A DNA stretch of 63,629 bases, the filler included, from Reclinomonas americana ATCC 50394 (Eukaryota): NCBI GenBank assembly GCA_048213135.1. It is 6 parts of 2 records of this genome, joined end to end, with 100 filler letters (N's around TTAATTAATTAA, not from the genome) between each part and the next. Parts side by side here need not be neighbours in the genome. Positions count along the whole stretch, not along the records: positions 18,220 to 37,377 come from PS015020.1; 5 more parts are not named here. The stretch is one strand, 5' to 3'. Below are positions 6,270 through 37,477 of the stretch, piece by piece; positions within the stretch are counted from its first letter, which is position 1; each line of letters opens with the position of its first letter. The notes below the pieces were generated by a model. The model was given only the letters and a program-made list of their open reading frames with translations, did no database searches and was not told where the DNA came from. The translations under genes were made by a program, and so were the position numbers.

Positions 6270-7811
6270 AGAGAGCACCACCAGTAGGAGCGCGGAAATA
6301 ACAGGAGACCACGCGTTCGTGCATGACGTGTACGTGAGTGATCTCTACTATGCAGCGTCCGTGGTCCGTGGTTGAAAACAAGATACAGTGGTTCATCAAC
6401 ACGCCTCGCCTCAAGGTCAGTGCAAATGCATATGGATGTGGAGATCCAGAGAGAGAGAAAGAGAATGATCACCAACAGAATAACAAGTATCGACATCAAG
6501 TTGAGCCAGAACCGGCAGCCTCATGTGCGGCGTTGACGTTGATTCCTGCAAAAGAAATGCACAAGCAGACTTAGGAGTCAGTCTTTCCGTGTGTACATGC
6601 ACCTCACGTCTCTTGAGATTCAAAATAAAATCACCAGTGTGCCAGACAACAGCCGAGCTCTCGCTGATCGACGTGACGACAATGCGTCCGTCATGCAGGA
6701 TGCCCATCATGCTGAGAATTGGCACCCCTCCAGTGCTCGGGACCAAGGCGACAGGCTCGCCAGACTGCGCATCGTAAATGCACGCGCGCCACTGGGTAGC
6801 CTCTGTTGTGACGCATCGATAACATCATTCGTGTCAATATTTTCGAATTCATGGTCAACAGCAGAACCAGCACTCACGCATAGTCAGGTCGGTCGCGATG
6901 AACCTGAAGTCCGTCGATATAGAGGCGGCCATGCAGATTGCACGGGAGTCACCCTTGCGGCTTAGCAAGGCACCGGCTGCAGAGTAAACGCTAAAGGTTC
7001 CGTCGTTGCGCACCACGACAATGTTCCGGTCTGGCAGAACTGCCATGGCGGGCGTGTTACAGGGCTCGATGTTGATGCGGGAGACAGTCACGTTGCCGGA
7101 GCCTGCAGCCCCCAGGTCGACAATAGTCACCGCACTGCCCATGGCAGTCTGCTGGCCCACAGTAGAGAGCAGCACCGCGCCAAAGGCAATCAGGCTTCCG
7201 TCGGCCGACATCGCCAAGGCGTGCACCACGTACAAATCGCCCGCGGCCGGTCGGGGAAGAGCGGCGGTAGTGTCCGACTCCGGCGCATCTACTTGGATGA
7301 CTCGCACATGTTCTCCGTTGTCCGCACGCCAGACACGAACAGTCTTGTCTTGGCATGCGCTTACAACAAAGCGCCCGTCGGCGGACGCCGCCAGCTTGTT
7401 AATGCGCTCGAACTTGTGCTCTCGACCACTCCACACCAACTTCCCGTCGCCGGTCTCGCCCGCCGCGCGCGGCAAACTCTGCGCAAGGGCGTTGGAGATG
7501 TCCCACACGGCCACCTCGCCATTGTCATGGCCGACCGCCACCAGCGTCTGTTTCGCGGATGGCACAAAAACCGCGGCGCTGATACTTCGTGCAGCACGCA
7601 CACTGCACAACAACGAGAGAGTGTCTGCGTCGAAAACGCGAAAGTGCTCGTCGCTGCTTGCACAGCAGATGAGTTGCTGGTGTCCGTGCGGTGCTTGCAG
7701 CGGCGCTGGTGACACGGTCATGGCCGTCACCTTTCCCTCAATGCCATGAATGACGCCGGCGGTGGTCGCCACATGCACGCGAGCGGAACCTGACGATGAA
7801 CAGCAGCCCAT
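6270..7811 (-). CDS. WD40-repeat protein with N-terminal MGCCSS dual-acylation motif (3' end uncertain, near gap)
   Basis: MGCCSSS start; WD-like blades (GHDNGEVAVWD; SADGRFVVSACQDKTVRVW). The frame continues across GT-AG introns near 6875 and 6602. Confidence 0.75.
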
Positions 7812-7878
7812 TGCTTTGGCGCCGTGACTGAAGAGAGAGAGTCGCCAGGAGCTAAAAATTCATTACAATATTAAGCAA

Positions 7879-24856: not shown

Positions 24857-27800
24857 TCAGACGCGAGGCTTGGTAAACGTAAACAGAGGGACGATGACGT
24901 CGGGGCCGTAGTAATCGAGCTGGAACATGGTCTTGCGCACGGTTACAAGGACAAAGCCCGCCGATGCTTGCTTCCACTGCGCAAAAGGGATGAGCGAAAA
25001 AGGGGATAACTCATACTAGCGGCGAGAAAAGCGAACCAGGTCGTTGGGAGAGCCTGAGCCCAGGTCGGTTGGGTCGTCTTGGAAACCACCACCGCTGTTC
25101 GGAGACCGGTGAGCACACGGGACACAGGCGAAACGAAAAGGAAGTCTGCGTACCTGATAATGTGCGGCGTTCCATTGGTCAAGTCCTCTGTGAAGCCGAC
25201 TCGCTTGTGTGAGCCACTGAGGAAACAAAGAGAGGCTGCTCGAGCACACACGCAACGCTGCAATTCGAGATTGTGATTGTGTCCGGCAAAGACAACATCC
25301 ACCGAGTAGGCGCGGGCAATCGGCAAAACTTTCTGCTCGCATTCCAGCCTGTTACACACATGCATGGCGAACCACGGCAGGCATGTTTCACACGCACGCA
25401 CCTGCTGCATTTCTGCCAACCCTTCCATATTGGGATCACCGGCAAAGCAAGGGTGGTGGCTGAACAGAATGTTGAAGTCGCCACGGAGGGTAGCATCGGA
25501 GGCCGACTGCGCGACAAAGCTGAGCATGGCTGGGTTGTTGACCTCGCGAAGGGCCGTCTGGTTCATGAATGTCTTGGTGAAGTACGAGTCGACTGTGCGG
25601 GACAAGGAGAAGAGGGAGGGTGAGGGAGGATGGTGGAGAGGGAGAAGAAAGGGAGGGGGTGGGAGGGTGAGGGAGGAGGACGGAGTGGGAGGGAAGAGAA
25701 GGGAGAGGGAGGATGGAGGGGGAGGGAGGGAGGAGGAGAGGGAGAGGGGGGAAAAACAGATAACATCCAGAAGACGATCGAGGACTGGATTATGTAGCAA
25801 GGAAACGGGAAGAGAGAGAAACGGGTGGGAAGGGAAAGTGGGATAAAGGGAGGGGGTGGGAGAGAGAAAACGAGAGGAAGAGATACGGAGAGCATGTACA
25901 GCAGCATAGACGATCACGGACTGCATAATGAAAATGCTGTTCCACTGAGACCACGGGGTCCACGATCAAGGACGGCATGGCGAGAGACGACAGATACAAA
26001 GAGGGTGGGAGAGTGAGAGGGAGGGAGAAAGTGAGGGAGAGGGAGAGAAACAGAGCAAGTCGAGTACTGATGATCACGGAGTGGATTACGATCGCGAAGA
26101 CGCTATTCGACTGAGAAGGTGGAAATGAGAGCAAGGACGACATGGAGTGGAGAGTGCGGACGAGAGACAAAGAGAGTCCCGCACATTACCGAGGATCTGA
26201 TATGCAGGCGCCCTTCGACTGAAATTATCGACTCCACAAGGAATAGAAGACACAGAGGAGAGAGGAGGAGCGGAGATGCAAGGACTGATGTGAACAACGC
26301 ATGGGAGAATGTGCACACACACACTGCTGCATACAGAGAGAGACAGAGAGTGACTGACGAGGTGAAACGAAACTCAAGTTCGTGGACGAGAAGCCGGTGA
26401 ACGTGATGTTGAAGCCTGTGCCGTCATGACAAACGACATCAGCTCATTATCAGCTCAACTCAAGCTGAAGCAACTCACCATCGTTGGCTCCCGGGGTAGT
26501 GTCAGCGATTGTTTCCCGGAAGTTATACCTGTGCGGCGCCAAGGTGAACAAGACGAATGCAGACCAGCAGAATCGAATGACGCGCACCAGTAGTACGGCA
26601 TGTGCCACCGACCAGTGGGACTTTGGTAATTGAACTGGCCCCACGGGTTTCCTGTGAAGCATCGCCGACCAATGAGTCCACAGCACATAAAGGGGCTACA
26701 CTCTGCCACATTACGGACCAAAATCGTGATTGCCGAGCACAGCGTTCCACGGAATGTTGGTGAGCGAACTCGCGGTGTAAATCTGCAGATGGCGAGGGTG
26801 AGTTGAGGGAGGCACAATTGTGAGCGGCAGTTGAACGCACGTCTTCAAAGGAAGTCTGGAACTGAGGGTCGGTGGCGCTGAGCACACCAGCGTTATCTGC
26901 GTCACGAAGAGAGCGTGTGTGTTAAGTAGGGATGTGAGTCTTGTCATGCACGCGCGGAGACATGCGCACAAAAATTATCTCCGACGGTCAGCACCTGTAC
27001 AGACGGACGGTAAATGAGCGCGCGGGCGGGCCAGAAATGGAGGGCGGCCGCAGACGCAACTCGCTGGCAATTGTACTTGTAGCACACTTGGCCGAGAATG
27101 TTGGCCACATTCTTTTGCAAATACTGCACGGCAAATGAAAAAAATCGTGAGCAAACAGAAGCGAAGACCACGAGAGAAGACCTGCGCACCATTCCCTGCA
27201 CGCCCCAGTCACCGATGACCGCAAAACGGTAGGAGGGAGCTGCGAGGGAGGGAAGAATGAGGGAAGAGACAAAGGGATGGTCAAGCATGGAGACGCAACA
27301 GAGATCGGCGGGCGGATCAGTGTGACGAGTGAGGACCAGAACCAGCACGAGGAGCGCGCCGAGGGCCAACACCGATATCACCGTGATGATCATGCACAGT
27401 CGCCACTTGCGCCTGTGGAGAGCGGAGGAGAGAAGGGAGGGAAAGGGAGAGAGAGGAGAAGATGAAGGAGAAAGAGAGTGAGAGGGTGAAGGAGACGTGA
27501 GCATGAAGGGGAGTGAGAGGATGAAGACGAAGGAGAACACGAAGGAGTAGAACATGAAGAAGTGGGTGAAGGCGAAGCAGAAGGATGAGCAGAACAACAA
27601 AGACAGCGAGGAAGAGAAGAAGCGCGAGGACGAAGAGGAGGAGGAGAACATGAGGAGGAGAAAAGGAGAGTGAGAAGACGAGGCGGGAGCAGTGGAACAT
27701 GAAGGAGGAGAACATGATGGAGAGGACACGATGAAGACGAAGGAGAACGATGAGGAGAAGAAGAACAAAGACGACGAGGCGGGGAACATGAAGGAGAAGG

Positions 27801-27876
27801 AGGAGTGGAGAGACCATGAATGAGAGCGAGGTGTAGCACGATGGTGGGGACAGTGAAGCAGGAGGAGAAACAGAAG

Positions 27877-27922
<46 letters not shown>

Positions 27923-28203
27923 AGAAGAGACGTACGACGTACGTACCGACCGTACCGTCCGGTACGGTACGTACGTAGTACGTTCGTTCGCGTCGTACGT
28001 ACGTACGGTACCGGGTACCCGGGTACCCGGTACCCGTACCGTACCGTACTACGTACGTACCGTACCGTACTACGTACGNNNNNNNNNNNNNNNNNNNNCG
28101 TACCTCCGGTTCGTCGTTAACGTTCGTAACCGTTCGTTACCGTACCGTACGTACCGTACGTACCGTACGTAACCGTACGTCCGACGTAACCGTCGAACGA
28201 GAG

Positions 28204-28235
<32 letters not shown>

Positions 28236-28550
28236 TGCACAATTGTTAGACTCGCATGCATGCAGTCAGGGAAAAATTTCTCGCACATCACGATGCATTC
28301 TCTCAGTCTCTCTCATCTCACTCACTCACCCACTCGCGATTGAAATGTTTGTTCTCGCAGCAGCGGGCGCCGAGTTGTACAAGACACCACTGCCATCGTT
28401 GACTGAGGGAAGTGAGCGCAAACTGCCTGTGCGCAGAGGATGAGGCCCACTGCTGCTTCCTCCTCCTCCTCCGCTTCCGCCTCGGCCGAGGCCACCAGGA
28501 GGCCCGCTCTCTTCGTCGCGCAGGCGGGTGTGGAAGTTGTAGCCGCTCAT
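24857..28550 (-). CDS. Tartrate-resistant/purple acid phosphatase-like metallophosphoesterase, type II membrane protein
   Basis: Motifs GDWG, VLTVGDNFY, VLGNHDF, RWHMPYYW, FSHHP, FAGHNHNL, IISGGG. A TM helix (CMIITVISVLALGALLVLVLVL) follows RRKWR. The probable first exon 28550-~28333 lies across a 20-N gap. Exon path in 25600-26400 is uncertain. Confidence 0.88.
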
Positions 28551-28659
28551 CGACGAGGGAACGAGGAGAGAACACGAATGTGCAGGACATCATGATGTCG
28601 GTTTTCATGAGTGTGTGCATGCTTAATGATGTGTGGTGGTGGGGGAGGAGGAGAGGGTG

Positions 28660-29460
28660 TGCTCCCACAGTGCACGTGTTGGCATCGTCGTTGTCGGTGA
28701 GTGGCGAACGATGAAGTATTGGGTGCACCATACCGATCGCGATCGACGTTCGCGCTATTCGGCTCCACGCTGCGCTGTGGTATATGCATGTGGAGAAGTG
28801 CTACGTGGAGGAGTTGTCTTCGTCGTTGGTGTCGTCGTTGGCAAGTGGCGAACGATGAATTCGAAGTATTGACGTCGACGCGCGCACCATACCGATCGAC
28901 GTTCGCCCTTCGACTCCGCGGGTGTGTGCAGAAGTGTGGTAGGGGTACGCTGCATGTTGCAGTTGCCGGTGTTGCCATCGGCGAGTGGCGATAGAGTACT
29001 TGGTGCATGTACCATCGAAAGAACGAGCAAAATCGATGCGATCGCGAATTCGAATTCGAAGTTCAAGGCTTGCTCGATACCTGGCTCTCCGTGGAGTGTG
29101 CAGGAGGGTGGCGAAGGTGCAGCAGGTGCTGTCTTTGTTGTCGATATTGCATGTGTTGTCGGCGAGTGGTGAATGACGGCGCCGGCTGCATGCGCAGAAC
29201 GGAAATCGATCCGGATACGTACGTCGGTATCGCAGTTGACGGCTTCCACGCTACTTTTCGGCTCCGCAGGTGCGAGTAGAAGTGTGGTAGGGTACGCTGC
29301 ATGTTGCAGTTGCTGGAGTTGCCATCGGCGAGTGGTGGCGAACGATGGAGTACTTGGTGCAGGTTGCCATTGCAATTGTGGACGGCAAGTTCAAACGAAT
29401 TCGAATTCGATGCGCAAGGAGATCGCTGCGACGCGAACTGAACTGAGATGGCCATAGAAC
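28660..29460. repeat. Degenerate ~140-180-bp tandem repeat in a divergent intergenic region
   Basis: Recurring gtcggcgagtggcgaacgatg..gtacttggtgca and agaagtgtggtagggtacgctgcatgttgcagttgc blocks, about 5 copies. Confidence 0.7.
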
Positions 29461-29775
29461 AGCGGCAGGCTTGTGATGTATCTGCTCGTCGCCTCCATAG
29501 CTTTCTTTCTGCCTCCCTGTTTGGAGTTTGGCTCGACTGCAAAACGAGTCGACGTCGTGCACATGCATGCCATAATTTAGATTGATCGTTCGTCCGTCTT
29601 CTTTTCTCGTAAGTCTCCGCTTAGGATGCACGCAGCTGCATTGCTTCGTATATAGATCAAGTTGCTGTTGCCGAGGAAGGCGCCGGAAGATTGCACCAAC
29701 CGATATCCGAACACACATCCGTTGAAGTTTTAAATTTTTCTGTTTTCATCGAGTGAGGAGAGAGAGAGAGAGAAA

Positions 29776-31113
29776 ATGGACTGTGCAATCGGCATCGACC
29801 TCGGCACCACCTCCTGCTGTGTCGGCGTGTGGGTGCGTGACACACACGCACGCACACTCCACGCAGCGACAACTCTCCTCACACCACCACGCACAGGAAA
29901 ATGACGCAGTGACGATCATTTCCGATGAAAAAGGCAACCGCCAGACCGCAGCCTACGTCTCCTTCACCGACGCGGAGCGCCTGGTTGGCGACGCCGCAAA
30001 GAGCGCAGCGGCCATGAACCAGCGCAACACAGGTGTGTGCGTGCATACGCACAGTCAGAGAGAGAGAGAGAGCCACACACACACACGACTCACACACATC
30101 GATGGTGCCCAGTTTTCGACGTGAGGCGCCTGATTGGTCGCAAATATGCGTCGCTGTCACCGGAAGAGCGGGCTCTGTGGCCGTTTGCTGTGGTGCAAGG
30201 TGGCGACGACCGCCCATTGATTGAGGTCACGGAAAAGGAGGAGAGCAAGCGCTTCTCGCCCGAAGACATCGCCGCCATGCTGCTGGCCAAGGCAAAGGAG
30301 ACGGCCGAGTCGCGCCTCGCCAAGCCGGTCTCCAAGGCAGTCATCGCAGTGCCGGTGTACTTTAACGAGGCGCAGCGTGCAGCCACGAGGGAAGCCGGTC
30401 GGATGGCTGGCCTCGACGTTGTGCAGCTGCTGCATGAGCCCGTGGCGGCGGCCATGGCGCACGGACTGCACAAGTTGCAGGAGGCCGCTCGCACGGTGCT
30501 GGTGTTTGATTTGGGTGGTGCCACTCTCGACGTGTCCCTGCTGATAGCGACGGATGGTGCGTTCGAGGTCAAGGCCGTAGCGGGCGACACGAACTTGGGC
30601 GGCCACGACTTTGACACTCGCCTGCTGAACTTTTTCGCGGACGAGTTCCAGCGCAAGTTCAGGCAGGACATGCGCACCAAGCCACGTGCTGCGAGCCGTC
30701 TGCGCGCCGCCTGTGAGCGTGCCAAGCGAGACCTGTCGTCGCAGATACGGGCGGAGGTCAATATTCAGTCGCTGCACGACGGCTTCGACTTTTACTCGGC
30801 CATCACCCGTGCGCGCTTCGAGGAGATCGCCGCCGACCTCTTCCAGCGATGTATCGAGGCAGTGGAGACTGTGCTCCGCGACGCCAACCTCACCAAGGAC
30901 CAGGTTCACGATGTGGTGCTGGTTGGCGGTGCGACCCGCATGCCCAAGGTGCACGAGCTGCTTTGTGCGTTCTTTGACGGCAAGGAGCTGCACGCCAGCA
31001 GCAGCAGCCCCGACGAGTCCATTGCCTACGGGGCCGCCCTGTACGCGGCCACATGCGCCGACCCGGACGCAGTCGACGCCGAAGTGGAGGCCGTGCAAGC
31101 GGATCGGCAGTGA
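29776..31113 (+). CDS. Atypical Hsp70-family protein consisting of the nucleotide-binding domain only
   Basis: [87 protein letters not shown], then a stop about 24 aa later. Two GT-AG introns. Confidence 0.92.
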
Positions 31114-31422
31114 TTCGAAGAAAAATAAACAAGGAATAGAGGTGTGTATGGCCTTCCGAAGAGGCGATGGTCAAAGTGATCAACCAGCGGCTGTGTTACA
31201 CTACCGAAGGAATTGAGTCGGTACCGGTGTACACGCCGTATCTGCAACAACACCAACATATTCATTCACCAACAAACAAGCAACAGCTGCCTTGATGACC
31301 AAGTTCAACCCTATCCAAAACATCAACACAAACACCAGTCTCGATGCGGCAGCAGGTTTCTTTTGTGTGTCTGTGTGTAGACGCTGCGATGCCAGACGGA
31401 GAGCGCAACGATGAGTTGCCGG

Positions 31423-32788
31423 CTAATCTTGCCGATCGCGAAGCCGATGGCGGCACCGGAAAATGAGCAGAGCAGAACACGGAACCACCAGGGCTGTCAG
31501 AATGATGCCAATGGTGTGCGGCCAAGACAATATTTGTTGGTCGCGCACCACACCATGATTGTCGGCACGGTCGCTCTCTCGACCTCCAACCGATGGCACG
31601 AAATCCAGAGGCCACATACACACTATGTTGACATCACTGCAACTCACAACGTGCTGTCCGTCTGGAGTGACGGCGACAGACCGCACCCGCGAAGTGTGTC
31701 CCTCCAACCGCCGCACTTCCTCGCCACTCTCCAGTGACCACACGCGCAGTGTCCTGTCCCAACTCCCACTCACCACGTGCTCACCATCGGGAGTGATAGC
31801 GACAGTAGGCACCGCATCAGTGTGTCCCTCCAGTCGTCGCACTTGCTGTCCACTCGACAGTGACCACACGCGCACCGTCTTGTCAATGCCACTACTCACT
31901 ACATGCTCGCCATCGGGAGTGACGGCGACTGACCACACCACGCCAGCGTGCCCTTCCAGGCGGCGCACTTCTTCGCCACTCGCGAGGGACCATACTCGCA
32001 CCGTCCCATCGCCGCCCCCACTCACGACATGCTCGCCATCGGGAGTGACGGCGAGAGACGCCACCCACGCTGTGTGTCCCTCCAAGCGTCGCACTTGCCT
32101 GCCACTCGCCAGCGACCACACTCGCACTGTCCTGTCTTTGCTCCCACTCACCACATGTTCACCATCGGGAGTGACAGCGACAGACGTCACCCGCATCGCA
32201 TGTCCTTGCAACCGATACACTTCCTCGCCACTCGCCAGTGACCACACTCGCACTGTCTTATCGATATCCCCGCCGCCGCTCACGACGAACTGACCATCGG
32301 GAGTGACGGCGACACACATCACCCAGTCAGTGTGTCCCTCCAGTCGTCGCACCTCCTTGCCACTCACCAGCGACCACACTCGCGCAGTCATCTGCATGTC
32401 ACCACTCCCCAGTACAATGTGCTCCCCGTCGGAAGTGACGGCGACAGACGATGCCACGAGCGGGAAGAAGCGTCGTCTGACGGAGAAAGAGATTACACGT
32501 GTCAATCAATGCATGCACAGATCCACAATGTATCATTGTAACACACACACAACAGAGAGAGAAGAGCAGACGAGAGGAGGAGAACGGAAGCAAGCAGAAA
32601 GAGGAAGTCGGTGTGCATGCAACAGACAACACACACAATCACAAGCTGTCTCTCTCTCTCTCTCTCACACATACGCTCTCTCGCTCACACACTCACCCGC
32701 TGCTGTCTGTCTCTCCCTTCACAGACTGCATCACTGCCAGTGCACCAATGGCAACAATGAGAAGCCAACACCTGCTGTTGCGGAACAT
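31423..32788 (-). CDS. Predicted type I membrane protein: signal peptide, 7 highly similar WD40 repeats, TM helix, short basic tail
   Basis: Exon 1 (32788-32697) MFRNSRCWLLIVAIGALAVMQSVKGETDSSG joins in phase 2 to exon 2 (32476-31423). 42-aa repeats GHxxxVxSVAVTPDGEHVVSGxxDxTVRVWSLASGEEVRRLE; C-terminal TIGIILTALVVPCSALLIF-RCRHRLR. Confidence 0.8.
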
Positions 32789-32831
32789 TGAAAAGAGGTC
32801 CTGTTGTTGTCCTCTTCTCCTCCTTGTTTTC

Positions 32832-35780
32832 ATGGTGGAGCCTCGACTTCTCCGCTGGTCCGACGTTCTGCAAAGCCTCGATGCAGACAAAGGCGATGAC
32901 GGAGAAGAACAAGGGGAGAAGATGATGACGCGAGAGGAGGTAGTGACTGCATTGGAGACGCAATGTGGAGTGCGAGTGTTGCGCGCGACACATGTGGCCA
33001 ACTTGTGCAAGTTGCATGAGTGAATGAGTGTGAGAGAGAGAGGGAAGGGGAAGGGGAGAGTGTGCATGTGTGTGTGAGTGTGAGTGTGAGAGTGTGAGTG
33101 AGAAAGAGAGAGAGAGAGAGTGAGCGAGCGAGCGAGTGAGCGAGCGAGTGAGTGAGTGAGTGAGTGTGTGTGTGTGTGTGTTTGTGAGGACGATGTGTTG
33201 ATTGATGGGGAATGCAGGTATGTGAAGGCGTGTGATGTGACGCGGAGGAGATTGAGTGGTGAGGGAGAGGGGATTGTGGTGCTGGGAGTGGAAGGCGATG
33301 AAGCGGATCAGCGGCTGCGACAGGCGTTGTGGAGGGAGCGATTGGTGAGCTGGTTATTGTCTTCTCCCCTTCTTTGTCTCCGTTTTCGGCATCTTCTTCT
33401 CCAGTGCCCTTCTCTTTGGTCTTCTTCTTGTTTTCTACTCCCTCCTGTCATCTCTTCTCGTCTCCTTGTCCTCCTCATCCTCTTCTTCGCCTTCATTCTT
33501 TCTCTTCTCTGTGTCCGTCTCCTTCATCTTCTTCTGCTCTTGTGTCATTCTCTTTATTCTTCTTGTTTTCTACCCAGTGTCGTCTCTTCGTCTCTTCCTC
33601 CTCGTCATCCTCTTTCTTTGCATTCTCGTTCTGTCTCCTCATCATCATCCACTTCGTCGTCTTGTTTGTCTTCCTCTTCTCTTCATCTTCTACTTCTTCT
33701 CTTGTTTCATTCTTTGTTCTTCTTGCTTCTACCCAGTGTCGTCTCTTCGTCTCTTCCTCCTCGTCGTCCTCGCTGTTCTTCTTCCCCTTCTCTGTCTTCG
33801 TTTCTTCTCCCTCCTCTTCCCTCTTCCTTCCACCTTCTCTGTTCACTCGTCATTCTCTTTGTCGTCTTCGTTCTTCTTCCGTCACGTCTTTTCCTCTTCT
33901 TCCCCTTCTTCTTCTTCCCCCCCTCTTTCCCATTTTCTCCATCTCACACCCACCGCCCCACCCAGGACTCTCTGCTTCGAATTCAGGAGTTTGAGCGCAC
34001 CGACAGCACATTTTGTCGCCAGGTACCACCGCCAGGGAGTGCGAACGCGATTCGTGCCGGCCTCCCACTCACTCGTCCCTCGCTCTGCAGTGCCCCTTCT
34101 GCAGCAAGATCTTTGCAGGGAATCGGTAAGCTCGTGCTCGACTTTCGCCCTTGCCCCCCATCAGCGCACTGACGTCTCCTGTGTTCCAGAGGCGTCTTGT
34201 TCGACCACATGTTTCGTGAGCACTCGTTTTCGTGTGGTCGGCGCGACAACATGTTGCGTCTCCCTTGCGCTCTCGCCAAGCAACACTCAGTACAACTGAT
34301 GGTTATCTGTGCATGCAGGGTTCTGGTTGACGAGTTTCTGTTGCGTGCCCACATTCACATCTTACAAGTCTCCCCACGCTGCCGCTGACGTTATTTTTGC
34401 GTCCTAGCGACATGATCTCCGACATGGTCGGCTCTCACATCATGTGCTTGTACTGCGAGAAAGTGTTCCCCGATCACGCCACGCTCAAGCGACACATGGT
34501 TTGCTTGCACAGACTGCCATCACAAGAGTGCACTCTTGTGTGCTCACATCTGCTTAATGCTTTATTGCAGCGCAAGAAGAAGCACTTTCGACTGTCGTCC
34601 TCACACACCTGGGATCGCTACTACCTCATCAACTATCTGGTCTGTTGGCTGCCCCATCCGCTCGCGCACTCCACTCGTCTTGCTGATCTTCCTCTTTGTG
34701 ATGCAGGAAATGGGCCTCACGTATGTGGAGCAGGAGCGAGAGCCGGACGAGGTGGACGGGTCGCAGTCGACAGCCACGGCCACTGGTTCACAGATGTTGC
34801 GCGCTTGACCGTCTGTCTCGATTTCCTTGTTGCCAACCAACCACCTCTGCAGCGACGACGACGACGACGGAAACGAAGATGAGGAGGAGGATGAGGGGGG
34901 CGGCGGCGGAGGCGGTGATGATGCACGTGAGTGGGAGGAGTGGGACGACGAGACCGACGAATCGCTTCTCCCAACTGTGTCACCGTGCCTGTTGTGTGGA
35001 GTGGCGTTCCAGTCGCGTGCCGCCGCCGATCTCTTGCGGCACATGATCGACGTGCATCACTTCTCGCTGACCGACCTGTGGCACTCGTTGGGCACGTCGT
35101 TTTACGACCGAATCAAGGTCAGTGTGGTTTGAGGAGATGGGCGCTTTGCGCGCAGCCTTGTTGACTTGTGCGCGCGTGCGTGCTGGCAGGTCGTCAACTA
35201 CATTCGCAAGCAAGTCTCCACGGGTGTGTGCCCGCGCTGTGGGGGGCGTGCGGGTGACGGCGGGTTGCAGCAGCACTTTGCCGAGAGTGAGGTGCGGTGT
35301 GCACACCTTTTTCTCCGATTCATTCTCACTCACTGTCTCTCATTCTTGAAGTGCGTGTCCATGTTGGCCCACGTGCTCTGCCACGAGAGGCATCGCTATG
35401 AGGACGCGGTGTACCTGTTTCCGGTGCTCGACGGCGATGTACTGCTGCAAGCCGTCGATGGCGACGATGATGACGACGATGACGACGGTGGTGACGGCGG
35501 TGAAGGCGTGGAAGAAGAGGATGACGACGCGTTTGCAAGTGGAAGTGGTGTGGCATCGTCGTCTGTCACACGAGTCGACACGGTGCGAATCATTGCGGAG
35601 GAGCTACCGCGTGCTCCATCGCCCGAGCGCATGGAGAGAATACGACGCGTGAGTGCACCATCGTCGTCGTCAGCAACAACAACAACGGCGGTGACAGCGA
35701 CGCCCACGGCAGCGGCCGATGCAAGTGGCTGGCGACCAGCGCCGTCACATAGAGGTGGAGGGAGAGCGTGGGGAAAGTGA
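32832..35780 (+). CDS. ZNF277: C2H2 zinc-finger protein of the ZNF277 family, 12 exons
   Basis: QEFERTDSTFCRQCPFCSKIFAGNR..LFDHMFREHSFSCGRRDN, CLYCEKVFPDHATLKRHMRKKKH, WDRYYLINYLEMG, CLLC..LLRHMIDVHHF, FYDRIKVVNYIRKQ, YLFPVLDGDVLL. Confidence 0.9.
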
Positions 35781-36047
35781 CCATGAAAGAGGCACCAGCA
35801 CTTGCAGTTGGCGACATCGCACTTGAGTTCACGCTGCTCTGTCCAAGATATCGAACTGTCTTCGATTTTCTTGCAGTAATGCCAATTCGAGTTTTCTCTC
35901 TTTTATTGCTTCTGGATGTCTTAGTTCTTCTGCTCCTCACTAGGAGATGCGGACTACCATGCAGCTGTGGCTGGTTTTGTTTGCAATCCGGACAAATCGC
36001 GATGACTCATCACGCAGACTGTCGTTGTGTGTTGTGATCATAGCCGA

Positions 36048-37130
36048 ATGGCGGCCGAGGTCGATGACAAGGCCCGCGAGTAGTTCCGTGACTCTCCAGC
36101 CTCCCTCTTACACACTCTAACACACACACACACACACTCACTCTCTCTTTCCCTCAGTCTCAACGCCGGTGCCACGTTGTTACGCACCACTGGCAACACA
36201 CTGCGCGGTGCCTCACAAGCCCTGCGCCTGTTCAACAAGGCGCTCTTCCTCAGACCCGATGGTGACGCACACACACACATGCTCTCCCTCTCTCTCTCTC
36301 CCTCACTCAACTCTCTCTCACAGACGCCTCTCTGTACCTCGGTCGCGGCGAGTGCTACGTCCGTCTGTGCGACCTCTCCTCGTCCATTGCCAACTACCAC
36401 CGCGGACTGCAACTCATTGCCGACCTCACTGCCATGATGGAAGAAGAAGAACAGGAGGAGGGGAGAGGAGGAGAACAGCAGCAGCTTCCTCCACCTCTTC
36501 CTCCTGTCGAGCAATCAGCAGGTCGACCTGTGGTGCCTCCTCACGGGGACTCAGCACGCGACTATGATGAAGTCGATGGGACTGTGATTGGCAGTGAGCA
36601 GCAGCCACCGACGCTGTTTGTGGGAGAGAGTGTTGGTGATGCGACGGCGACGGTGGTGGTGGTGCCGTCTGGCAAGGGTGCGCGGCATGCGGCTGTGAGC
36701 AGTGGATTGTCGTCGAGACAGAGTGAGCGCACGACGCAGCAGTTGACACCGTCGCCGGAGATGGTGTTGGATGCACCCGTGCGTGCGCCAGTGGCGAAGA
36801 AGAAGGAGTCGGTGATGGTTCGTGAATCGCATCATCAGCAGCAGCAACAGCAGCAGCAGCACCATGAGCAGCTGGAGTCGCAGCAAGCGATGCGACCGTG
36901 GTCGGCGGTGGATTCGGAGCCACCGGCGAGTATGGGCGGGGCAATGTCGGGGCGAGAGAGCGGTCGCAGTTCGGTGGCCAGTGGTGGTCTGCCCACGTCG
37001 CAGCCGTCGTCGCGACAGCCATCGCCATCGCCATCGCCATCGCCGTCTCCTGCTGCGTCCATCTCGCCGCCTGTGGTGCCCAGTGCCAGGGACACAGCTC
37101 GACCGTCGACCATGTCGGTGGAGAATGTTG
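36048..37130 (+). CDS. TPR protein resembling the TTC16 N-terminus (3'-partial), followed by a low-complexity insert
   Basis: ALRLFNKALFLRPD|DASLYLGRGECYVRLCDLSSSIANYHRGLQL is a TPR pair resembling TTC16 as I recall it. The gene runs to the scaffold end. Confidence 0.65.
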
Positions 37131-37477
37131 GTCTTGGTGCGTGGTGTGGGTGAAGGAGGAGTCTCCTCTCAACTACTAGCGTCTCCATTTGTGTTTCCCC
37201 TTCTCTGTCCTCTTCACTGCTTCTTGTCTTCCACTCTCTATCACACAATCACACTCTGCCTCTCTTCCTCTCACTCTTGTGTGGCCATCACTTGCCCTAT
37301 CTCTTTTCCAGCACGTTCCGTGATTCAACATGTTCATCCTCCTCACTGGTTCTTGTCTCTCTCTCTCTCTCTCTCTCNNNNNNNNNNNNNNNNNNNNNNN
37401 NNNNNNNNNNNNNNNNNNNNNTTAATTAATTAANNNNNNNNNNNNNNNNNNNNNNNNNNNNNNNNNNNNNNNNNNNN

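Follow-up and report, generated by a model that had tools for sequence, protein, structure and literature searches.

The DNA analyzed here is a window of 63,629 nucleotides (nt) from Reclinomonas americana ATCC 50394 (assembly GCA_048213135.1), made up of six parts joined with 100 N between them (741 N in 15 runs overall). All positions run along the window; positions 18,220–37,377 come from PS015020.1, and adjoining parts are not necessarily neighbors in the genome. Our subject is a WD40 gene on the minus strand, predicted to consist of two exons that encode a signal-peptide-like N-terminus, a WD40 β-propeller, a membrane helix and a short basic tail, an architecture that, judged from the sequence, appears unusual for eukaryotes. 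Its features, with hydrophobicity as mean Kyte-Doolittle (KD) values and AlphaFold2 (AF2) confidence as predicted local distance difference test (pLDDT) values, are as follows.

32697..32833, minus strand: exon 1, with the start codon, 45 codons plus 2 bases and a signal-peptide-like N-terminus, ending ...AGC GG before the donor GTGAGT
32729..32770, minus strand: putative signal-peptide h-region, residues 22–35, CWLLIVAIGALAVM (KD 2.66 over 14 residues, heuristic)
32477..32696, minus strand: predicted intron, 220 nt, GTGAGT...CAG, microsatellite-rich (direct sequence reading and splice-site enumeration)
31423..32476, minus strand: exon 2, 1054 nt, including the stop codon TAG at 31423–31425 (sequence reading and translation)
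31609..32469, minus strand: seven-blade canonical WD40 β-propeller, exon-2 residues 3–289 (Pfam, AF2 with blocks mostly at pLDDT 87–97, Foldseek)
31519..31608, minus strand: disordered stalk of ~30 residues between propeller and membrane helix (AF2 pLDDT <50 at exon-2 residues 293–327)
31459..31515, minus strand: transmembrane helix, exon-2 residues 321–339 (KD 2.44 over 19 residues; AF2 helix 320–349)
31426..31458, minus strand: C-terminal tail of 11 residues, Arg-rich (5 Arg, 2 Asp; translation)

The start codon at 32833 stands in the context caccATGa, and the last base of exon 1, 32697, precedes a perfectly matching donor, CGG|GTGAGT. The intron closes with ...ctttctccgtcag, followed by A at 32476, so that GG and A form a Gly codon across the predicted junction (32697/32476), the phase is kept, and the frame stays open for 350 codons to the TAG; joined by these coordinates, exons 1 and 2 give a frame of 396 codons that no stop interrupts. 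The first-pass annotation of this DNA had put a signal-peptide exon in phase (GG|A) with the WD40 exon and had remarked that a plain open reading frame (ORF) track conceals the architecture. Coordinates and phase are correct by sequence reading and translation and the second remark is supported at the same level, while the two-exon junction itself remains a predicted gene model.

The frame of exon 2 opens after a stop at 32508–32506, and between that stop and blade 1 there is a single AG acceptor, at 32476. The first in-frame ATG of exon 2 is residue 27, within blade 1; no ATG lies ahead of that blade, and an upstream coding exon is therefore required for a whole propeller. Enumeration of donors within 2.7 kb yielded 57 phase-compatible, ATG-containing choices, of which seven match GTGAGT at 5 or more of the 6 bases and two match it perfectly, the proposed one implying the 220-nt intron and the other an intron of 1596 nt. 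The proposed exon 1 is the nearest upstream ATG-bearing frame and ends in a perfect phase-compatible GTGAGT donor, and its splice-site types match those of two homology-supported introns in a neighboring sortilin/EGF gene (GTAAGT...CAG and GTGAGT...CAG). GTGAGT is, however, present 93 times in the window (both strands) against ~32 expected from base composition, partly owing to (GTGA)n microsatellites, and a consensus donor alone is therefore weaker splice evidence here than in most genomes. The codon-usage score of exon 1 is −0.13 in the proposed frame compared with −0.46 and −0.30 in the other frames, and its 45-residue peptide has no match in Pfam.

The propeller was recognized by Pfam (WD40, PF00400) in six stretches with E = 1.6e-71 and 234 bits against a cut-off of 27, and Tandem Repeats Finder reported a period of 126 with 5.8 copies and 75% matches. 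Run without an alignment, AF2 returned a model with a mean pLDDT of 83.4 and a predicted TM-score of 0.78, in which 28 strands make up seven blades of a closed propeller; exon-2 residues 3–5 provide the fourth strand of blade 7, i.e., the exon begins exactly at the closing strand. The top Foldseek match is the WD40 domain of PkwA from Thermomonospora (PDB code 5yzv; target-normalized TM-score 0.95, root mean square deviation 1.4, 43% identity), and further top matches are WRAP-derived designs, the Nostoc WRAP protein (2ymu) and WDR5.

Repeat divergence and position of the variable sites

The gene had been described as carrying seven near-identical repeats. Tandem units of ~126 bp are indeed present, but near-identity is not, since the inner five (units 2–6) are 72–79% identical in DNA and 67–79% in protein (median protein identity 74%) and the outer two have diverged: unit 1, which has no GH, is 33–60% identical in protein to the other units, and unit 7 33–52%. 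Over all 21 unit pairs the medians are 60% for amino acids and 67% for nucleotides. In the accessible parts of the two papers, Hu et al. (PMC5587647) call an internal identity of at least 0.7 highly and at least 0.4 moderately repetitive, and Pereira and Lupas (PMC9218822) place the threshold for highly repetitive propellers at a median blade identity above 60%; the present gene is borderline between moderate and high, with 74% for units 2–6 and 60% over all pairs.

Substitution rates were obtained by the Nei-Gojobori method for the 10 pairs of units 2–6, separately for 33 scaffold columns and for nine variable columns that were picked after looking. The scaffold has a synonymous rate (dS) of 0.67 and a nonsynonymous rate (dN) of 0.09, a ratio of 0.13, and H2, S20, D24 and W30 are invariant in all five units. 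Together, these values suggest that function has been retained. The post hoc variable columns have dS 1.06 and dN 0.85, and the ratio of 0.80, from only five units, is not above 1. The repeats appear to share a common origin and, because dS between them is ~0.7, not to have been homogenized recently.

These observations bear on whether the locus could be an unexpressed relic, i.e., a stranded WD40 exon that is untranscribed or joined to no start codon. The microsatellite-rich flanks and the failure to find an ortholog among proteins, GTDB genomes or metagenome contigs would fit such a relic. Against this stand the 350 open codons with seven well-formed blades, closing strand and intact tetrad, the scaffold ratio of 0.13, the confidence of AF2 without an alignment, and the clean acceptor with an in-phase upstream exon, and we consider decay improbable.

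The variation itself is strongly localized. The strings that the first-pass annotation had listed (TDWVMC, AMRVTS, TAWVAS, AGVVWS, TDAVPT and TSRVRS after GH; GG, SK, GI and SW before the Asp) are all present, and their concentration at these two places is beyond chance: in the four exact 42-residue units, columns 5, 7, 23 and 25, fixed a priori as homologous to the variable pairs of the fungal HNWD proteins (5/7 around Val6 and 23/25 around Asp24), have a mean pairwise difference of 0.96 compared with 0.19 in the other 38 columns (permutation p = 9e-5). In the AF2 strand map the variable columns fall on the d-a loop, the start of strand a and the b-c turn. The top face of a propeller, to which these elements belong, is its usual ligand-binding surface.

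From these positions it had been concluded that the protein is a HET-E-like hypervariable sensor derived from NOD-like receptors (NLRs) of the HET-E/HNWD type, which would act at the surface in allorecognition or in the sensing of prey or non-self and diversify by repeat shuffling. The variable columns do flank a conserved Val and Asp exactly like the HNWD codon pairs 7/9 around 8 and 25/27 around 26 (PMC1805685, in the part available), and some of the relatives listed are STAND, NB-ARC or NACHT proteins with WD40 repeats, including one named from the protist Reticulomyxa. The pattern is, however, widely shared. Among 240 relatives (120 near-length and 120 longer matches listed from a collection of 5.8 billion proteins), 121 have at least five exact 42-residue units, and in 68 of these, which are of mixed architectures, mean identity between units reaches 60% or more. 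The mean profile of this subset has seven of its nine most variable columns in common with the present gene (Spearman 0.55). Hu et al. (PMC5587647) describe such positional variation, in the portion of the article at hand, as general among highly repetitive WD40 proteins. The pattern is generic to repetitive WD40 propellers and therefore no pointer to an NLR origin.

The degree of repeat conservation leads to the same result. As far as the available sections of the two papers go, identity among HNWD repeats reaches 100% and positive selection acts on four codons (Paoletti et al., PMC1805685), and "high internal conservation" denotes repeat identity above 85% (Dyrka et al., PMC4986451). The 67–79% in protein and 72–79% in DNA found here, with dS ~0.7 and thus no recent homogenization, stay below the ~85% or more that goes with concerted evolution in HNWD-type repeats, and the ratio of 0.80 at the variable columns, partly picked post hoc, is not above 1; the label "HET-E-like hypervariable" is not supported. 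In place of the NACHT domain that precedes the repeats in HNWD and HET-E, the N-terminus is the 45-residue signal-like peptide. Between 33496 and 38178, across the 5 kb upstream, the minus strand has 15 ORFs with 90 residues or more, and these contain no Pfam family and no NACHT, in agreement with the earlier statement that the protein lacks this domain; no NOD domain lies nearby, and no paralog occurs in the window. We also rejected a gene extended upstream by further domain exons, on the grounds that no Pfam family occurs on the same strand for 5 kb and that the sortilin/EGF gene is on the opposite strand. The proposed kinship with the allorecognition NLRs of fungi cannot be upheld, and a surface sensor of that descent is unlikely.

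Relatives and origin of the propeller

The relatives are generic WD40 proteins. Among the matches listed from the protein collection, identity is at most 59% and confined to the propeller, leaving stalk, helix and tail uncovered, and those of highest identity (53–59%) are metagenome proteins of mostly prokaryote-like architecture. Searches of GTDB species genomes (47 loci) gave at most 46% identity over long matches and 52% in one short segment, and metagenome contigs (78 loci) at most 57%; a search of the ESM Atlas with exon-2 residues 281–350 gave no usable match.

The closest relatives are propellers of prokaryote type, and in many of them a membrane helix precedes the propeller. The 120 near-length relatives listed have an N-terminal segment in 13 cases, an internal one in 17 and a C-terminal one in 2, with none in 89, and the 120 longer relatives in 6, 48 and 1 cases, respectively, with none in 68. 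In all seven matches named as sigma-70 family, a single helix separates the sigma part from the WD40 repeats, which implies a propeller outside the cytoplasm; two relatives, P0064 and P0084, have a signal or anchor together with a nearly identical repeat consensus; and extracellular WD40 domains are predicted for cyanobacterial orthocaspases in the part of a review that was available (PMC7475262). The premise of the first-pass annotation that WD40 domains are intracellular thus applies to eukaryotes but not to the closest relatives at large, which include bacterial propellers behind a membrane helix and so provide a precedent for a propeller placed across a membrane.

With respect to origin, the gene could have been acquired horizontally as a bacterial-type secreted or periplasmic WD40 gene that later gained a eukaryotic signal-peptide exon, a history that would be compatible with a type I membrane protein. 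The prokaryote-like character of most top matches (53–59%), PkwA of Thermomonospora as the best solved match, the confinement of the propeller to one intron-free exon, and bacterial relatives with a signal or anchor and the same repeat consensus would all fit. No close donor emerges from GTDB (long matches reach 46% at most and one short segment 52%) or metagenomes (at most 57%), however, and consensus-like repeats converge in sequence, so that identity is a weak guide to ancestry. The GC content at third codon positions (0.63, compared with 0.64–0.79 in neighboring genes) and the codon score resemble those of the neighbors; the composition is native, and the test for foreign composition was negative. 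Horizontal transfer is therefore possible but unsupported, and we rate it as having a low probability.

The only other WD40-like ORF noted in the window, at 6858–7859 (minus strand; PF00400, E = 7e-10), is diverged; its identity to the repetitive propeller does not exceed 42% over 38 residues, and the two are unrelated. On the 3′ side of the WD40 gene, a convergent Hsp70-like ORF at 29785–31113 (plus strand) ends 310 bp from the WD40 stop codon. It matches only the nucleotide-binding half (query residues 6–379) of a 642-residue Hsp70, with 51–58% identity to the best matches, and the rest of the window yielded no Hsp70 substrate-binding domain. The 5′ side, 32900–34300, is the putative promoter or 5′ region and contains microsatellites ((GTGA)n at 33070–33178, and CA and CT runs) as well as, on both strands, long open frames of low complexity (Ser/Leu-rich and Lys/Glu-rich) that have no Pfam match. 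The sortilin/VPS10-type gene lies ~4.6 kb upstream in window positions, at 37426–42006 (plus strand, opposite to the WD40 gene), and has BNR/Asp-box repeats, teneurin-like EGF modules and EGF-type phase-1 introns of ~60–80 nt near 38240–38301 and 40201–40282; it is another propeller-bearing protein, a type I sorting receptor. Two exon-sized ORFs belong to ordinary housekeeping genes, i.e., Cse1/exportin at 15617–16960 (minus strand, E = 1.8e-35), whose nearest Atlas clusters are mostly diatom and haptophyte records, and acyl-CoA oxidase at 23232–24458 (plus strand, E = 1.1e-7).

Membrane topology and proposed role

The exon 1 peptide runs from a basic stretch through the 14-residue hydrophobic run CWLLIVAIGALAVM to QSVKG/ETDSS, where cleavage would be likely after residue 40, with V at −3 and G at −1 (small residues; heuristic only). 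A signal-peptide rule of our own, framed after the peptide had been seen and hence post hoc, is satisfied by 16 of the 741 ATG-started open stretches of the window. At the other end of the protein, the helix TIGIILTALVVPCSALLIF is followed by the tail RCRHRLRDRQD, and a single hydrophobic helix (KD 2.44, helical in AF2) with a basic flank containing 5 Arg is what a type I single-pass protein has; the hydrophobic helix and basic tail of the earlier description are thus present. In glycosylphosphatidylinositol (GPI)-anchored proteins, the C-terminal hydrophobic signal ends the protein and no charged tail follows. A GPI anchor was ruled out here, the helix being followed by 11 residues that include 5 Arg and 2 Asp.

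According to the mechanism we propose, exon 1 would act as a signal peptide, cleavable by its appearance, that carries the propeller across the endoplasmic reticulum (ER) membrane, and the helix with its basic tail would stop transfer, leaving the propeller on the luminal or outer side. The five inner blades retain the complete H-S-D-W scaffold and vary mostly at the d-a loop and b-c turn, i.e., on the top face, and would present a membrane-tethered surface for adhesion, for the capture of cargo or partners, or for use as a co-receptor. The protein carries no enzymatic or signaling domain, and it would therefore be a binding platform rather than a self-contained receptor. We give about an even chance to this reading, in which an intact, lineage-restricted two-exon gene encodes a type I protein of 396 residues that spans the membrane once and holds a WD40 binding platform on the luminal or extracellular side.

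Several observations weigh on the other side. A second donor, GTGAGC, lies 8 nt downstream (frame ending at 32689) in a different frame, and the codon log-likelihood ratio of exon 1 (−0.13) is not significant, being equaled or exceeded by 24% of random window segments. If the first ATG is used, the n-region is long, at 21 residues with 7 basic ones. The usual marks of adaptation to the secretory pathway are missing from the ectodomain, in which N-X-S/T sequons and blade disulfides are absent and the Cys number only three. No ortholog was found in the protein collection, GTDB genomes or metagenome contigs, which returned only generic WD40 relatives, and an N-terminal together with a C-terminal hydrophobic segment occurs in none of the 240 relatives listed. 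The helix ends 11 residues before the C-terminus. Tail-anchored proteins are defined by just such a position, within ~30 residues of the end, combined with the lack of an N-terminal signal, which makes this last point adverse or at best neutral.

It is on this geometry that the main competing explanation is built, in which exon 1 is mis-modeled or is no signal and the C-terminal helix holds a cytosolic propeller on an organelle surface as a membrane-bound scaffold, in the manner of a tail-anchored or Sec12/PREB-like type II protein. To our knowledge, eukaryotic GH-WD propellers are textbook cytosolic or nuclear scaffolds, with which the lack of sequons and of a disulfide pattern and the non-significant coding score of exon 1 would agree, and size and layout recall Sec12/PREB. 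The position of the helix fits a tail anchor, but an N-terminal signal, as there would be with exon 1 in use, does not. Exon 2 offers no start codon ahead of blade 1 and needs an upstream exon, and both the favored exon and the alternative frame to 32689 encode a hydrophobic, signal-like N-terminus; the basic tail behind the helix agrees, furthermore, with the positive-inside rule for a type I protein. A cytosolic, tail-anchored propeller is the less probable topology, although it deserves more weight than the relic or the NLR-derived sensor.

Any compartment of the endomembrane system could house the protein, and its tail has a recurrent R-x-R spacing similar to that of Arg-based ER retention signals; even a type I protein would therefore not necessarily reside at the cell surface. 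In a more far-reaching version, which we regard as a long shot, the propeller would lie on the outer face and offer a diversifiable top-face recognition surface for prey, kin or symbionts, shaped by blade amplification and loop divergence and working through a co-receptor. The present value of the gene is that of a lead from gene prediction. Should routing into the secretory pathway hold true, it would mean that the GH-WD fold works outside the cytosol without disulfides or glycans, and protist surface biology would gain a new kind of ectodomain.

Comparison with known systems

Sec12/PREB, with ~400 residues, one propeller and a membrane helix near the C-terminus, has a similar layout; unlike the present protein, Sec12 has no signal peptide, a cytosolic propeller and highly diverged blades. 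Sec12/PREB is not among the Foldseek matches listed (ranks to 50). The NACHT-WD40 NLRs HNWD and HET-E of Podospora anserina share with the present gene the 42-residue WD units and the variable pairs, placed in the d-a loop and b-c turn on either side of a conserved residue. In contrast to them, it has neither a NACHT nor an N-terminal effector domain and a predicted non-cytosolic topology, and its repeats are 67–79% identical, with dS ~0.7 and dN/dS below 1, compared with ~85–100% identity in HNWD.

PkwA (Thermomonospora curvata, 5yzv) and WRAP (Nostoc punctiforme, 2ymu) resemble the present propeller in having seven GH-WD blades, the H-S-D-W scaffold, high internal identity and top-face variation. 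These propellers are bacterial and reside in kinase or other multidomain proteins, whereas here the gene is eukaryotic and predicted to be spliced, with only a signal-like N-terminus and a C-terminal helix added to the propeller.

Among the papers listed in our literature search for secreted or extracellular GH-WD propellers in eukaryotes, only CRINKLY4 and the cyanobacterial review were relevant, which is no proof that there are none. The plant receptor kinase CRINKLY4 is, within the part of the preprint available (bioRxiv 10.1101/2020.08.10.245050), a eukaryotic type I protein with a seven-blade propeller outside the cell, as in the topology proposed here. The CRINKLY4 blades are stapled by one disulfide each, are closest to BLIP-II/UVR8, and precede a Cys-rich domain and a kinase; the present protein differs in its GH-WD blades, in having no disulfide pattern and in having no kinase, and the contrast in disulfides speaks against an extracytosolic location.

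Also close are the bacterial sigma-70-TM-WD40, kinase-TM-WD40 and orthocaspase-TM-WD40 proteins (TM, transmembrane helix), whose propellers, with a similar repeat consensus, are predicted to be non-cytoplasmic (for the orthocaspases, in the accessible part of PMC7475262). They differ in that a cytoplasmic output domain stands at the N-terminus and the anchor is N-in, whereas the present protein is anchored C-terminally, ends in a tail of 11 residues and lacks an output domain. A diversifiable propeller on the outer face, if confirmed, would be a eukaryotic counterpart of these bacterial membrane-anchored WD40 sensors, and would link the eukaryotic and bacterial uses of repetitive WD40 domains as sensors.

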